Assembly (NCBI GenBank): GCA_963666365.2
Contig: CAXXNF010000001.1
Span: 1,216,001-1,280,000 of the forward strand
Direction: 5' to 3'
DNA from: Syntrophales bacterium
GTDB lineage: Bacteria; Desulfobacterota; Syntrophia; Syntrophales; UBA2210
DNA length: 64,000 nt
Part shown: positions 44,747 through 48,370 of the stretch, one piece after another
How positions within the stretch are numbered: the first letter of the stretch is position 1
How the letters are laid out: the number at the start of each line of letters is the position of its first letter
Translations under genes and position numbers: made by a program
Notes under the pieces: model-generated
Database searches by the model: none
Told to the model about the DNA's origin: nothing
The model's input: the letters and a program-made list of their open reading frames with translations, nothing else

Positions 44747-45817
44747 TCAGACACTGAACCGTATATTCAATATGTCGCCGTCACCGACAATGTATTCTTT
44801 CCCCTCGAGGCGAAAACGGCCCTGATCCTTGACGGCTTTTTCTGACCCGCACTCGATGAGATCCTGATAGGAAAAACACTCGGCACGGATAAATCCACGG
44901 GCCAGGTCGGAATGGATCGATCCGGCCGCAGCAAGCGCGGTATCTCCGCGGCGGATGGTCCAGGCCCGCACCTCGTCCGTACCCACCGTGAGAAAGCTGA
45001 TATAGCCGAGGGTCTCATAGGCAAAACGGGTCAGCCGGTCGCGGGCGGAATCGGTGATCCCCATGTCGTCCATAAACAGCCTGGCCTCTTCCTCATCGGT
45101 CAGTCGGGAGAGTTCCATCTCGAAAGCGCCGGCAAACTCGATTACCCGGCATCTTTTTTCAATTTCTTGAAGCAGATCGCCGTTGTTGCCGAATGTGGCC
45201 TCACCGGAATTGAGCACGATGAGCACGGGTTTTTTCGAAACAAACTGAAAACCGGCAATGATCTTTTCTTCGCCGTCACTGAAGGCCATTTCTCTGATCG
45301 AACGATTATCGTTCAATTGTTCCTGAATTTTCCCGAGTATACGCTCCTCGGCCTCCAGTTCGGCCGTCTTTTTGCCTCGCTTATAGCTCCACTCGATGCG
45401 TTCGAGACGGGTTTCGATAACGATAAGATCGGCCAGAATAAGCTCCGCTTCAATTGTTTCGATATCCTGCAGGGGGTTCGGTTCTCCCGAAAGGTCGTCA
45501 TGAAAGTTCCGCAGCACCAGCGCCAGCGCATCAAGGGTTTTTATCAACGCCATCTGACCGGCGGAGAACCCGCCGCCCCGGACCGAACCTCCCGAAAATC
45601 CGACGAAGTCAACCACCTCGACGGTTGCATAGGTTACCTTTTTCGGTGAATACATTCCGGCAAGGCGCTCAACCCGCTCATCGGCTACGGTGACTACGGC
45701 GATGTTCGGTTCCGCCTTGGCCGATGCATAAGCGGCGACCTCCGCGTTCGATTTAGTCAGGGCGTTGAATATCGTTGTCTTACCGGAGTTGGGAAGACCC
45801 AGTAACCCGATTTTCAT
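44747..45817 (-). CDS. ychF: YchF/Ola1-family ATPase (divergent)
   Basis: GLPNSGKTT.FNALT, V.DER...L, FLTVG..EVRAW, AG.IHSD..RGFIRAE and EGKEY.V.DGD. Confidence 0.9.
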   Translation of the reverse strand: MKIGLLGLPNSGKTTIFNALTKSNAEVAAYASAKAEPNIAVVTVADERVERLAGMYSPKKVTYATVEVVDFVGFSGGSVRGGGFSAGQMALIKTLDALALVLRNFHDDLSGEPNPLQDIETIEAELILADLIVIETRLERIEWSYKRGKKTAELEAEERILGKIQEQLNDNRSIREMAFSDGEEKIIAGFQFVSKKPVLIVLNSGEATFGNNGDLLQEIEKRCRVIEFAGAFEMELSRLTDEEEARLFMDDMGITDSARDRLTRFAYETLGYISFLTVGTDEVRAWTIRRGDTALAAAGSIHSDLARGFIRAECFSYQDLIECGSEKAVKDQGRFRLEGKEYIVGDGDILNIRFSV

Positions 45818-46061
45818 TCTCTCTTTACTCCTCCATGTATCCGGTCAATTGCTGTCATATCAAAAGGATGGAACGTAGGTCCAACGGGGCGGTTTGTCAA
45901 GGATTATTTACCGGCAACCGGCGGGCCGGCATGGACATTCCCGCGGATGGCTTGTGTTTCGGACATGCATGACTATATTATAGGGACAACGGCTTCAAGG
46001 AGGATGTGTGCGCATAATCATGTCGCCCCTCTGATCCCTTGAATCCTCAAGAGGAGGCATT

Positions 46062-46211
46062 ATGCAGGAAATAGTAATTCTCATCCTTATTGTGGGCGGC
46101 TGGTTTGCGCTGCAGAAGTGGATCCTTCCGAAGATGGGGGTGGACACCTGAATGAGCAGGGCCTGTCAGGTGACAGACAAAAAACCGAAAGAAGAAACAG
46201 GAAAAGACTGA
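46062..46211 (+). CDS. Putative 49-aa single-TM selenoprotein MQEIVILILIVGGWFALQKWILPKMGVDT-U-MSRACQVTDKKPKEETGKD
   Basis: AGGAGG RBS before ATG 46062, an in-frame TGA at 46149-46151, a SECIS-like hairpin 11 nt downstream, a downstream Cys, and a second TGA at 46209-46211. Missed by the ORF track. Confidence 0.7.
46163..46176 (+). promoter_or_regulatory. Putative bacterial SECIS hairpin
   Basis: CTGTC-AGGT-GACAG starts exactly 11 nt after the TGA, with GGT in the apical loop. Confidence 0.65.
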
Positions 46212-46243
46212 GGCGTCTCGCGGCGCGACATCCCTCAGATCCC

Positions 46244-46939
46244 TCAGGGCAATTTTCTTTCTCCCTCCGCAAGGGCCTCAAGGCCTTTGCGGTTTTCAAT
46301 TTTAATGCGGGCACCATGGCCTTCGATCAGGCCCGCCTCTTCCATTCTCGCGAGAATTCGGGAAAGCGTCTCGGGAGTGGTCCCCAAAAAGCTCGCCAGA
46401 TTGCCCTTTGACATGTCAAGGACAACCATGTCCCTGTCCGGCTGCTGCGCTTCCAGAAAGAGGAGATATGCGGCAAGCCGCCCCGGCGCCTCGCGCAGAG
46501 AAAGCCCCTCGATCACCCGCACAAAACGTCGCAGGCGAAGAGAAAGCACCCCGAGCATGGCCATTGCAAACGAGGGGTCGTCGCCGATAAGACCGATCAA
46601 CGATTCGCGGCCGACAAAGAGAAGGCGACCGGCCTCGAAGGCCTCGGCATAGGCGGGAAAGGCCGTCCCCGAAAAGAGGGCGCCCTCGCCGACGGTTTCT
46701 CCCGGGCCGGCGAGATGGAGGATCTGTTCCTTCCCCTCGGGGGAAAGCTTATAAATTTTGACCCGCCCCTCCAGCACCATATAAAGACCGCCTGCCCTCT
46801 CCCCCTCCGAAAACACCGCCTGGCCCCCGGCATAGGAACGGACCAGGGCGATCTTCGCCAGCCGCTCCCGCTGGGCGGAAGAAAACCCCGAAAAGAGGGG
46901 AACGGAAGATATATGCTGAAGAATATTATTCCGGTTCAT
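46244..46939 (-). CDS. Crp/Fnr-family transcriptional regulator (HcpR/Dnr-like)
   Basis: G.VKIYK.S.EGKEQIL, GE..LF and recognition helix GTTPETLSR. Confidence 0.92.
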   Translation of the reverse strand: MNRNNILQHISSVPLFSGFSSAQRERLAKIALVRSYAGGQAVFSEGERAGGLYMVLEGRVKIYKLSPEGKEQILHLAGPGETVGEGALFSGTAFPAYAEAFEAGRLLFVGRESLIGLIGDDPSFAMAMLGVLSLRLRRFVRVIEGLSLREAPGRLAAYLLFLEAQQPDRDMVVLDMSKGNLASFLGTTPETLSRILARMEEAGLIEGHGARIKIENRKGLEALAEGERKLP

Positions 46940-47131: not shown

Positions 47132-47416
47132 TTAGCCCGATCTCGAGTAATGGACAGCTACCTGGTCCCCGTAAATATACACTCGTGTCACCGAATAACC
47201 GTTATTCCTATAGCACTCGGGAATATTATAGGTGATCGTAAATTCGGGATCGGGAATATTGCCCGTCATACCCTGGGCATCAAGATCCTGACGGATGCAG
47301 GAATACTGATCCGCAACGGCCTGTGGCGTGCTGAAAAGCCACATCATCAGCATCGATGCAGCCAGCGCCCCGGCCAGAAAATACGATATCCCCCGAAATC
47401 GTTTTATTGTTTTCAT
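47132..47416 (-). CDS. Small secreted hypothetical protein (two Cys)
   Basis: AAGGAGG RBS and a signal peptide ending QAVA. Confidence 0.6.
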   Translation of the reverse strand: MKTIKRFRGISYFLAGALAASMLMMWLFSTPQAVADQYSCIRQDLDAQGMTGNIPDPEFTITYNIPECYRNNGYSVTRVYIYGDQVAVHYSRSG

Positions 47417-47523
47417 GGCTGCCCTCCTTTGAGCGGTTTTCACTGTACAGGTAAAATTATTGCACGGGATTTCCGGTTTTTTCAACTATAAAAGCAACAT
47501 GTCAGCCTGATGAACGATATTTT

Positions 47524-47537
47524 TTGACATACATCAA
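47524..47537. promoter_or_regulatory. FNR/HcpR-type operator
   Basis: TTGA-CATACA-TCAA palindrome about 85 nt upstream of the Fe-S gene, near a Crp/Fnr gene. Confidence 0.65.
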
Positions 47538-47620
47538 AGCACTTCGCCTCAGGAATGATTATTGTACGAACAACAGTGCAGGGACCGACAGGGAACAGTA
47601 CATCGAAAGGGGAAGACGCC

Positions 47621-48370
47621 ATGAAGATACGAAGAAAAATCATTACCATAGATGAAGAAAAATGCGACGGCTGCGGGCTCTGCACCGAGGCGTGCAGTGA
47701 AGGCGCCATCAGGATCGAAGGCGGCAAGGCCAGGCTGATCGCCGAAAAATATTGCGACGGCCTCGGCGCCTGTCTGGGAGAATGCCCGCAGGGTGCAATC
47801 ACCATCACCGAGCGGGATGCGGAGGCCTTTGACGAGATCGCCGTGGAGGCCCACCTGCAACAGCACGTGGCGCCTGTCGCCGACGCGTTACCCATGGCCT
47901 GCGGTTGTCCCTCCTCCCATATCGAGACCTTTTCACGCCCCTCTGCAGGCGACGCACCACCACTATGTGCCGCAGCACCTCGAGGCGGCTCATCGGAACT
48001 CACCCACTGGCCCGTCCAGATCAGGCTCGTGCCCCCCACGGCGCCGTTCCTTGAAAACGCCGATCTTCTTGTAGCGGCCGACTGCACGCCGGTGGCCTGC
48101 GGGCGGTTTCAGGAGGACTTCGTGAAGGGACGGACAGTGATGCTGGGATGTCCCAAATTCGACGATGTCGAGGACTACGTGGAAAAATTCGCCCGGATAT
48201 TTCAGCAGGCGCACATTCGAAGCATCGTCGTCCTTGTCATGGAGGTTCCCTGCTGTCAGGGACTGCCGATCATTCTTCAAAGGGCCATGGCGCTCTCGGG
48301 AAAGCGGATTCCCGTGGAAAGGGTGGTTGTGTCAACCCGGGGCGAAATTGTGGAAAAACAGACACTATGA
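47621..48370 (+). CDS. 4Fe-4S dicluster protein with Cys-rich C-terminal domain
   Basis: CDGCGLC...C.EGAI, CDGLGACLGECP, CGCPS, WPVQ..L, ADC, GCPK.D and MEVPCC. Confidence 0.88.
   Translation: MKIRRKIITIDEEKCDGCGLCTEACSEGAIRIEGGKARLIAEKYCDGLGACLGECPQGAITITERDAEAFDEIAVEAHLQQHVAPVADALPMACGCPSSHIETFSRPSAGDAPPLCAAAPRGGSSELTHWPVQIRLVPPTAPFLENADLLVAADCTPVACGRFQEDFVKGRTVMLGCPKFDDVEDYVEKFARIFQQAHIRSIVVLVMEVPCCQGLPIILQRAMALSGKRIPVERVVVSTRGEIVEKQTL

Follow-up and report, generated by a model that had tools for sequence, protein, structure and literature searches.

Within a 64,000-nucleotide (nt) stretch of DNA from a Syntrophales bacterium (assembly GCA_963666365.2, contig CAXXNF010000001.1, positions 1,216,001 to 1,280,000), referred to here as the window, a very short gene on the forward strand carries an in-frame TGA at its codon 30. 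The comparisons described below indicate, with a probability of roughly 0.87, that this micro-gene is a genuine selenoprotein gene of a conserved family, encoding a protein of 49 residues. Selenocysteine (Sec) would actually be inserted at the UGA. The gene would represent a new family within a known kind of system, characterized by an unusual architecture, a minimal Sec insertion sequence (SECIS) and a surprisingly wide spread. This reading was originally put forward in an earlier note made from the sequence alone, which proposed a protein with a single transmembrane helix and a pair of Sec and cysteine (Cys) of the type U-x4-C. All the coordinates given in that proposal are correct, including those of the open reading frame (ORF), of the TGA at 46149 and of the hairpin 11 nt after it, and the AGGAGG motif precedes the start codon as described. 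Homologues ending in TAA or TAG at the same position, a lack of conservation downstream of the TGA and a genome devoid of Sec machinery were also looked for, and none of the three was found.

The read-through peptide was searched against 61 related genomes and gave 41 matches (expectation value, E, ≤ 1.1e-4) in 39 of them, each with one in-frame TGA and with an alignment that extends past it. In an alignment of 40 sequences from these relatives, which was also used as a search profile, M1, P23, G26 and the TGA codon are invariant (40/40), and W14, Q18, L22, T29 and C35 are conserved in at least 90%. Cys35 itself is kept in 39 of the 40. The distance from the start codon to the TGA is exactly 29 codons in 37 of the 40 relatives and 28 codons in the other three, and purine-rich stretches of the GGAG type precede the start in most of these genes. 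A set of 111 distinct homologues was then compared for reading frame and hairpin. All 111 keep frame 0 open for 11 codons or more past the TGA (median 23), whereas frame +1 closes before 11 codons in 68 of them and frame +2 in 35. The tails are rich in charged residues (K 19.8%, D 10.9%, E 9.9%) and end in TGA in 46 homologues, in TAA in 41 and in TAG in 24. By these comparisons, the stretch past the TGA is predicted coding sequence.

Homologues with Cys in place of the putative Sec are also found. A profile search of 1.84 billion representative proteins returned 1575 matches at E ≤ 0.001. Among the best 150 of these 1575, 70 have Cys at the site and 69 of the 70 also have Cys at +5, the typical motif of the Cys forms being T-C-M-S-G-A-C. 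Another 42 stop precisely at the site, W is present at it in 29, and a few have R, G, S or L. A tryptophan at this site is the expected product of gene callers that use a code in which TGA is Trp. Since these 150 entries are 29-residue stumps, forms with another residue (mostly W) or Cys homologues, gene callers evidently drop the micro-gene or cut it at 29 residues, as the earlier note had predicted of standard pipelines. In a smaller protein search, all four matches in public collections (4/4) were the 29-residue form. Metagenome contigs were scanned for the T-[U/C]-M-S-G-x-C subgroup with TGA, TGC and TGT all allowed; among the matches listed there are 79 analysable loci, about four of which look like chance or garbled matches, and they comprise 62 with TGA, 14 with TGC and three with TGT.

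The minimal SECIS of Escherichia coli fdhF lies 11 nt downstream of the UGA and has AGGU in its apical loop. The hairpin of the micro-gene has the same spacing and the same loop, on a stem of 5 base pairs (bp). In the window sequence alone, this arrangement of TGA and hairpin is not beyond chance; compared across homologues, it is far beyond it. In 105 of the 111 distinct homologues, a perfectly paired hairpin with a stem of 5 bp or more starts 9-22 nt past the TGA. The remaining TGA triplets of these loci (relatives and genome collection) served as the control, and 4669 of 16788 of them (27.8%) are followed by such a hairpin. A G is found at the first or second loop position in 103 of the 105 hairpins. 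In 90 of the 111 homologues the hairpin starts 9-15 nt past the UGA, with stems of 5-9 bp and loops of 3-8 nt. In the metagenome set, a hairpin of at least 5 bp at 9-22 nt follows 59 of the 62 TGA forms vs 6 of the 17 Cys forms, and the latter rate is close to the 27.8% background. The hairpin thus tracks the TGA and not the Cys, as would be expected of a SECIS element and not of a terminator or a by-product of peptide conservation.

In most copies from Desulfobacterota the hairpin has a common register, in which offsets 12-16 pair with offsets 21-25 around a loop of AGGU or AGUU. The 5′ arm begins with base 3 of codon 34, spans the Cys35 codon and ends on base 1 of codon 36; the 3′ arm runs from base 3 of codon 37 through codon 38 to base 1 of codon 39. 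In the 40 relatives, 90.3% of the cells are paired. The pair at offsets 15-22 (n = 66, selected on the other four pairs being formed) is C-G in 36, U-A in 28 and C-C in two. In terms of codons, 36 sequences combine TGC with Ala (GCN), 28 combine TGT with Thr (ACN) and two combine TGC with Pro, while TGC-Thr and TGT-Ala are both absent. The window and a relative of the same genus have U-A amid a family whose other members have C-G, so that a compensatory switch would have occurred at least twice. More distant lineages have longer stems, other registers and loops of 3-8 nt.

The hairpin was also compared with a bacterial SECIS model, the rules of which are given in the accessible part of a 2026 review (PMC13188914): an apical loop of 3-9 nt with at least one G among its first two positions, an upper stem of 4-16 bp, a distance of 16-37 nt from the UGA to the apical loop and a minimum free energy of −7.5 kcal/mol or lower. 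The loop (4 nt), the stem (5 bp), the G rule (AGGU) and the spacing (11 + 5 = 16 nt, the lower limit) of the window hairpin agree with these rules. Many relatives with a CUGCC/GGCAG stem reach −8 to −9 kcal/mol or better. The minimum-energy fold of 46140-46215 is a different hairpin that pairs the UGA itself. This UGA-sequestering pairing of 7 bp was considered and rejected, as it is not conserved, forming in 2 of 36 and 13 of 75 homologues.

The assembly contains the genes required for Sec decoding. A tRNA-Sec is detected at 76.3 bits (Rfam RF01852, above cut-off) and is called by ARAGORN as tRNA SeC with anticodon tca, and selB (361.5 bits), selA (608 bits) and selD (382.8 bits) all score above their curated cut-offs. 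Since selD carries its own in-frame TGA (G000:C1:483557-484486, locus L317), the SelD of the source genome is itself a predicted selenoprotein. The selA gene is present in 56 of the 61 relatives, including 36 of the 39 carriers of the micro-gene. The sequence checks that the earlier note had called for turned out in its favour: homologues keep TGA or Cys at codon 30, conservation continues in frame past the TGA, the hairpin follows the TGA forms and shows a compensatory switch, and the Sec machinery is in place.

The family is widely distributed. Matches to the profile occur in 182 of 401 genomes sampled across the phylum of the window, and all of the 150 matches listed (150/150) have TGA. In a second phylum, represented by a sample centred on a record titled Planctomycetaceae, 21 of 201 genomes match, 20 of the 21 with TGA. 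A collection holding one genome per species was scanned with a self-made degenerate DNA pattern allowing TGA, TGT or TGC, and more than 117 stretches were found. Of these, 80 loci were taken and 77 could be analysed; 77/77 have TGA and a hydrophobic N-terminus, in a set for which the pattern fixed K/R-M at residues 24-25 and Cys at +5, under-samples Cys forms (mostly F or L at residue 25) and makes the conservation of Cys35 circular. The record titles among the matches listed include Desulfobacteraceae, Syntrophaceae, Geobacter, Desulfuromonadales and Desulfomonile and, beyond these, Planctomycetota, Acidobacteriota, KSB1, Aminicenantes, Melainabacteria, 'Deferribacteres bacterium' and Candidatus Solincola. 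The matches listed also include a cultured strain, Desulfocicer vacuolatum DSM 3385, in a type-strain record, and relatives from Geobacter and Syntrophobacter are carriers as well. About ten bacterial groups are represented among the named records with the gene.

Several observations weigh against the selenoprotein reading. The window hairpin is weak (−6.2 kcal/mol) and misses the energy cut of the model (−7.5 kcal/mol), and the fold of 46140-46215 has z = −1.15, with 31 of 200 shuffles at least as stable. The term 'fdhF-like', by which the earlier note had described the SECIS element, is therefore only loosely right: loop, stem and spacing agree with the model taken from PMC13188914, in the part available, and the energy does not. 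The missed cut may be one reason why SECIS-based searches would skip the window copy. The hairpin overlaps conserved codons (C-Q-V-A/T-D), and protein and RNA constraints are entangled there. In the 40 relatives, only two of the five pairs change on both sides (three cells), the covariation score is 0.171 vs 0.144 for shuffled alignments (6 of 500 shuffles as high), and a register slid by −3 still pairs 85% of the cells. The C-G/U-A split derives largely from two lineages and may reflect few independent events. Both collection scans used self-designed patterns that fix several residues by construction. Finally, selA was not found in three carriers, G018 (92% complete), G025 (84%) and G053 (100%).

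The last of these genomes, G053, belongs to the same order, and its copy (L053:495-617, +) retains the helix of 29 codons and the TGA, but its tail has diverged and lacks Cys35, and its hairpin is displaced. This copy may fit decay after loss of the Sec trait, as a single case.

The coordinates of the micro-gene and of its flanking features are collected in Table 1. Codons 1-29 encode a short polar start followed by a long hydrophobic stretch. AlphaFold2, supplied with the 40-sequence alignment, predicts one helix at residues 2-24, with a predicted local distance difference test (pLDDT) of 87 and 83 in the first two blocks of ten residues; the rest is low-confidence coil, and the mean pLDDT is 67.5. 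The helix is flanked on its N-terminal side by three approximately neutral residues and on its C-terminal side by K/R24 and the Lys-rich tail. Because of these flank charges and of the positive-inside rule for membrane topology, the tail and the Sec30/Cys35 pair probably face the cytoplasm, at the membrane surface. A lipoprotein, to which a helix and a Cys might point, was rejected by inspection, as Cys35 lies 12 residues past the helix and there is no lipobox.

Table 1. Features of the micro-gene and its surroundings in the window (position 1 is the first nucleotide of the window)
Feature	Coordinates	Strand	Basis or remark
ychF, flanking gene	44747-45817	-	TIGR00092, 294 bits
Shine-Dalgarno AGGAGG	46052-46057	+	Direct read; 4 nt 5′ of ATG
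Codons 1-29: N-terminal transmembrane helix and LP[KR]MG[VI]xT motif	46062-46148	+	ORF list, alignment, AlphaFold2
In-frame TGA, residue 30 (predicted Sec)	46149-46151	+	Sequence and homologue comparison
Codons 31-49: x4-Cys35, then Lys/Asp/Glu-rich tail	46152-46208	+	19 in-frame codons
Spacer between TGA and hairpin, 11 nt	46152-46162	+	Direct read
SECIS-type hairpin CTGTC-AGGT-GACAG, 5-bp stem CUGUC/GACAG, AGGU loop	46163-46176	+	Direct read
Cys35 codon TGT	46164-46166	+	Direct read
True stop TGA	46209-46211	+	Direct read
Crp/Fnr-family regulator, flanking gene	46244-46939	-	Convergent to the micro-gene
Terminator-like hairpin and T-run, 56 nt past the stop, overlapping the 3′ end of the convergent Crp/Fnr gene	46267-46292	+	Weak, consensus match only
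2x[4Fe-4S] ferredoxin-domain protein, Cys-rich C-terminal part	47555-48370	+	Pfam Fer4; NCBIfam ferredoxin matches below cut-offs

The micro-gene (46052-46211 with its Shine-Dalgarno motif) stands alone on the plus strand between the minus-strand ychF and Crp/Fnr genes. A consensus scan of 45750-46350 revealed no promoter of the sigma-70 type, and the terminator scan gave the one site listed, vs 0.6 expected from shuffles. A TG-nn-TATATT-like element seems common to some of the relatives' upstream regions, which is an impression only. The stretch TGTCAAGG, common to several upstream regions, was considered as a regulator site and rejected, since it may be read as the −35 box of the divergent ychF promoter. 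An Rfam search identified no family, the sole match being a spurious long non-coding RNA (E = 0.17).

The neighbours of the family were examined in three sets, in which the loci are not independent and many come from close kin, so that the counts below are to be read accordingly. In the genome collection, the nearest ORFs of 74 loci (148 ORFs scanned) include thioredoxin-fold proteins (8 loci), Pyr_redox_2, of which one is a fusion with rhodanese, and PAS-sigma54 activators (5 loci each), HMA-type P-type ATPases, MerR, CCG/Fer4 and Usp (3 each), and ArsR and cysteine desulfurase (2 each). In the metagenome set (123 ORFs of 75 loci), rhodanese occurs in 10 loci, thioredoxin-fold proteins in 5, Pyr_redox_2 in 5, DUF302 in 4 and the ArsR-type HTH_20 in 4. 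The 10 rhodanese loci include two metallo-beta-lactamase-rhodanese fusions, which lie beside Cys forms, and two Pyr_redox_2-rhodanese fusions. In L217, L242 and L247 a regulator, the micro-gene and a rhodanese-domain gene follow one another in this order on one strand.

The third set comprises 19 loci of relatives from the window's own family. Here the most regular neighbour is an iron-sulfur (Fe-S) protein like that of the window: in 8 of the 19 loci (L011, L013, L014, L016, L017, L020, L023 and L025), the closest gene on the same strand encodes a protein of similar size that matches the same Pfam Fer4 families, and this protein is a possible partner of the micro-selenoprotein. YgbA_NO lies directly downstream in 5 of the 19 and ychF is divergent in 5, and in 2 an HMA-containing Cu/Zn efflux transporter of the SO_0444 family is found upstream (NF033936, 348 bits, cut-off 300). 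The earlier note had placed the gene among redox-stress genes. The neighbours it named in the window (ychF, the Crp/Fnr regulator, the 2x[4Fe-4S] protein and a Bcp-type peroxiredoxin) are real, and they are only partly conserved in the relatives.

Some further features of these loci may be recorded. The Fe-S protein has about 250 residues and a conserved CC motif in its C-terminal part, and only its ferredoxin domain matches Pfam/NCBIfam. The YgbA_NO gene ('nitrous oxide-stimulated promoter') lies 3′ of the micro-gene on the same strand in L016, L017, L018, L022, L026 and L125, which come from lineages that are close to one another. The SO_0444-HMA fusion stands directly upstream of the micro-gene at L018:1694-2929 (-) and L026:208-1443 (+). 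In the window, an ORF of 117 codons (47132-47485, -) with a hydrophobic N-terminal stretch and no Pfam/NCBIfam match lies between the Crp/Fnr and Fe-S genes.

Regulation of the HcpR/FNR type, connected with nitrosative stress and with the consensus TTGAC-N4-GTCAA (given in the available part of PMC1274295), came into consideration because a Crp/Fnr gene adjoins the micro-gene, the Fe-S gene is frdX-like and YgbA_NO genes are among the neighbours. This candidate was not supported. The window-wide counts of such sites are those of chance (27 vs 25.3 and 20 vs 19.4 expected), no site occurs upstream of the micro-gene, and upstream of the Fe-S gene a site is found in only 1 of 10 relatives. The window itself has an FNR/HcpR-like box (47524-47537, +) that is one base off the consensus, adjoins the Crp/Fnr gene and precedes the Fe-S gene on its upstream side; it is only suggestive.

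The common thread of the neighbours is thiol, selenol and sulfane-sulfur chemistry, with metals as a minority theme. The U-x4-C motif may accordingly serve as a redox or metal pair, as the earlier note had proposed, and the theme of the neighbours favours a selenenylsulfide relay. In the proposed mechanism, the ribosome would meet the UGA at codon 30, where SelB with Sec-tRNA(Sec) would be recruited by the 14-nt hairpin 11 nt downstream. Sec would be inserted, and translation would run on for 19 codons past the UGA. The product would consist of a transmembrane helix (about residues 2-24), the junction LP[KR]MG[VI]xT-U-x4-C and a disordered Lys/Asp/Glu-rich tail. Its Sec/Cys pair would cycle between the selenol/thiol state and the selenenylsulfide, served by reductases of the thioredoxin, rhodanese or Fe-S type encoded nearby. 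A membrane-tethered redox or sulfane-sulfur relay operating through the Sec/Cys pair is the foremost functional proposal suggested by the neighbours, held at a little under even odds. On the other side, the neighbourhoods are diverse and non-independent, there is no universal partner, and metal-related neighbours occur as well (three P1B-ATPases, three MerR regulators and two SO_0444-type exporters).

Taken jointly, these elements would describe an uncatalogued, predominantly Sec-using family of membrane micro-proteins, each about 50 residues long. In anaerobic Desulfobacterota it would rank with the commonest selenoproteins (45% of sampled genomes), and it is present also in Planctomycetota, Acidobacteriota and others. 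Through its selenenylsulfide relay, electrons or sulfane sulfur would move between reductases of the cytoplasm (thioredoxin, rhodanese or Fe-S) and chemistry on the membrane side, and its 14-nt hairpin would be near the minimal natural SelB-binding element. That all these parts hold together is a tentative proposition, with about one chance in three by the reckoning adopted here.

Other explanations have to be considered. The one that survives best accepts the selenoprotein and holds that the U-x4-C pair is a ligand site for soft metals or metalloids (Cu, Hg, Cd, Zn, As, Se), accessory to exporters. As ligands, Sec/Cys pairs suit soft metals well. Heavy-metal P-type ATPases with HMA and MerR regulators (3/74 loci each), ArsR regulators (2/74), ArsR-type HTH_20 (4/75) and the SO_0444-family exporter with HMA upstream of the micro-gene in two of 19 relatives all fit this view. 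Transport selenoproteins of the MerT and SO_0444 types are, moreover, listed in the part of PMC13188914 that could be consulted. The thiol- and sulfur-related neighbours are commoner, in the genome collection and the metagenome set respectively: thioredoxin-fold proteins in 8 and 5 loci, rhodanese in 1 and 10, and Pyr_redox_2 in 5 and 5. ArsR-type regulators beside rhodanese genes fit persulfide sensing equally well. No metal-transport gene adjoins the micro-gene in the window. The metal site is thus ranked second, behind the redox or sulfur relay, and is judged unlikely.

A second alternative is that the UGA acts mainly as a selenium-dependent switch, yielding the 29-residue helix when selenium or SelB is limiting and otherwise the 49-residue form, the two having different effects on a membrane partner. 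The constant distance from start to UGA (29 codons in 37/40) and the high conservation of the helix on its own would be expected of such a device. The TGA forms, furthermore, far outnumber the Cys forms in the sampled lineages, which is unexpected if Sec is only a better Cys. However, Cys forms exist without any switch, and the conservation of Cys35 argues that the long form is functional, so that a switch as the main role is regarded as improbable.

The simplest alternative is that the TGA is an ordinary stop, the product is a membrane peptide of 29 residues and the downstream part is a non-coding RNA element (a terminator, an attenuator or a stability hairpin). The public collections do hold the 29-residue form (4/4 matches, and 42 of the best 150 of 1575), the local fold does not stand out, and in G053, a 100%-complete genome in which selA was not found, the tail has diverged and Cys35 is missing. 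Bacterial Sec insertion is inefficient, and a truncated product is likely alongside the full-length one. Nevertheless, frame 0 stays open for at least 11 codons in 111/111 homologues, unlike +1 and +2; Cys35 is conserved; and the TGC/TGT homologues read through into the same MSGxC motif. The hairpin is mostly gone in the Cys forms (6/17 vs 59/62), the reverse of the pattern expected of a terminator; it is not followed by a T-run, and the Sec machinery is present. An ordinary stop is considered very improbable on this evidence. An alternative genetic code with TGA as Trp or Gly is rejected on account of the gene's own TGA terminator and of long genes such as selA and selB, which are without in-frame TGA, and also because the hairpin and the pattern of Cys homologues are specific to Sec.

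With regard to novelty, the window protein, the 40 relatives and 45 library homologues including Cys forms have no match in Pfam-A/NCBIfam release 20.0, the best scores being 12-17 bits vs cut-offs of at least 22. None of the 119 families and subfamilies of Table 1 of PMC13188914 is a one-helix U-x4-C micro-protein. Such a family is likewise not described in the accessible portions of 10.1101/2022.07.06.499078, PMC12013277 and PMC13326102, nor is it named in those of deep-Sep and BSepDB, the latter without its Table S2. The statement of the earlier note that no named selenoprotein family could be assigned is in keeping with these results. The family is to be considered 'not found described' in the literature examined, and the claim that it was never described is not made. 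According to the accessible discussion of deep-Sep, methods of its kind depend on Cys homologues. Very short flanks would also weaken searches for Sec/Cys pairs. In the ESM Atlas the nearest cluster is a 'hypothetical protein' with 123 members (score 0.88), which is a lead only.

Among known systems, the genes with an in-ORF SECIS of the formate dehydrogenase type (model in the available part of PMC13188914) are similar in having an in-frame UGA followed by a small stem-loop with an early loop G, in the presence of selA, selB, selC and selD together, and in having Cys homologues at the same site. The micro-protein differs from them in having only 49 residues and a membrane anchor, and its hairpin in being a bare 5-bp stem below the energy cut, placed within conserved codons.

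Another likeness is to DUF2892 (PF11127), the transmembrane domain of YgaP-like proteins. The similarity concerns a motif at the end of a transmembrane helix, [LFM]-G-[IVM]-[ST]-T-C in DUF2892 vs M-G-[VI]-x-T-U here, and hhalign aligns just those 11 columns with a probability of 34.8%. YgaP is also associated with rhodanese, as are some of the micro-gene's neighbours. However, the micro-protein has one helix and not two and is without CPxY and the N-terminal NxGxxDR, and DUF2892 ends right after its Cys, whereas the micro-protein continues with x4-C and a charged tail. In 15 aligned DUF2892 proteins, N4, D9, R13, C53, P54 and Y56 are invariant. PF11127 is not listed for the window protein at E ≤ 10 or for the 45 homologues at E ≤ 1, and the same model finds ordinary DUF2892 proteins in 20 of 41 relatives. 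ORFs of the DUF2892 type occur in the flanks of 8 of 221 loci, and in G050 the micro-gene is followed, at about 55 nt, by a DUF2892 gene. The link may thus consist of a short common motif and an occasional neighbour and possibly reflects a distant relationship, with no membership in the family.

In G050, two places (G050:C6:141776-142177 and G050:C23:54410-54743) have a TGA-containing micro-ORF with a DUF2892 gene within about 60 nt, the second micro-ORF being weak (E = 0.03). Two records titled Acidobacteriota (L112:2725-2932 and L133:2746-2932) have a cysteine desulfurase (Aminotran_5) upstream of the micro-gene, with a weak DUF2892-like ORF (E of about 1e-5 to 1e-4) near the micro-gene; in L112 this ORF is directly upstream and on the same strand.

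The eukaryotic proteins SELENOK and SELENOS have a single transmembrane helix and, after it, a charged and disordered tail in the cytosol, in which Sec is located. The micro-protein has this general architecture, which is an analogy only, with no sequence relation detected. SELENOK and SELENOS are proteins of the endoplasmic reticulum with Sec near the C-terminal end and a SECIS in the 3′ untranslated region, whereas here Sec would lie 6 residues past the helix and the hairpin is inside the ORF. The nearest by motif is TsoA 'LULAXC' (NF045695), with U-L-A-x-C vs U-[ML]-x3-C here, that is, a spacing of U-x3-C vs U-x4-C. This comparison relies on the listed motif and the model only (Table 1 of PMC13188914, as available), and NF045695 does not match the window protein, the 40 relatives or the 45 library homologues. 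KCU-star/DUF466 (NF033934), SaoC and UXX-star, as presented in the accessible parts of PMC13188914 and 10.1101/2022.07.06.499078, are also tiny, truncated at the UGA in databases and recognised by a conserved TGA and a hairpin loop containing G. They differ in having Sec at or next to the C-terminus, and no transmembrane helix is noted in those descriptions. The NCBIfam models of the three do not match the family.

If Sec is confirmed, a widespread family would be added to the bacterial selenoproteome, and the selenoprotein counts of many anaerobes would be low by one. The product would be an unusually small selenoprotein with its Sec tethered at the membrane surface; only few transport proteins are obviously membrane-bound in Table 1 of PMC13188914. 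The compact natural SECIS, with its 5-bp stem and AGGU loop, would be useful for defining minimal SelB recognition outside E. coli. Lastly, the company of thioredoxin-fold, rhodanese, disulfide-reductase and Fe-S proteins would offer a testable entry into the membrane-proximal thiol, persulfide or selenium chemistry of anaerobes.

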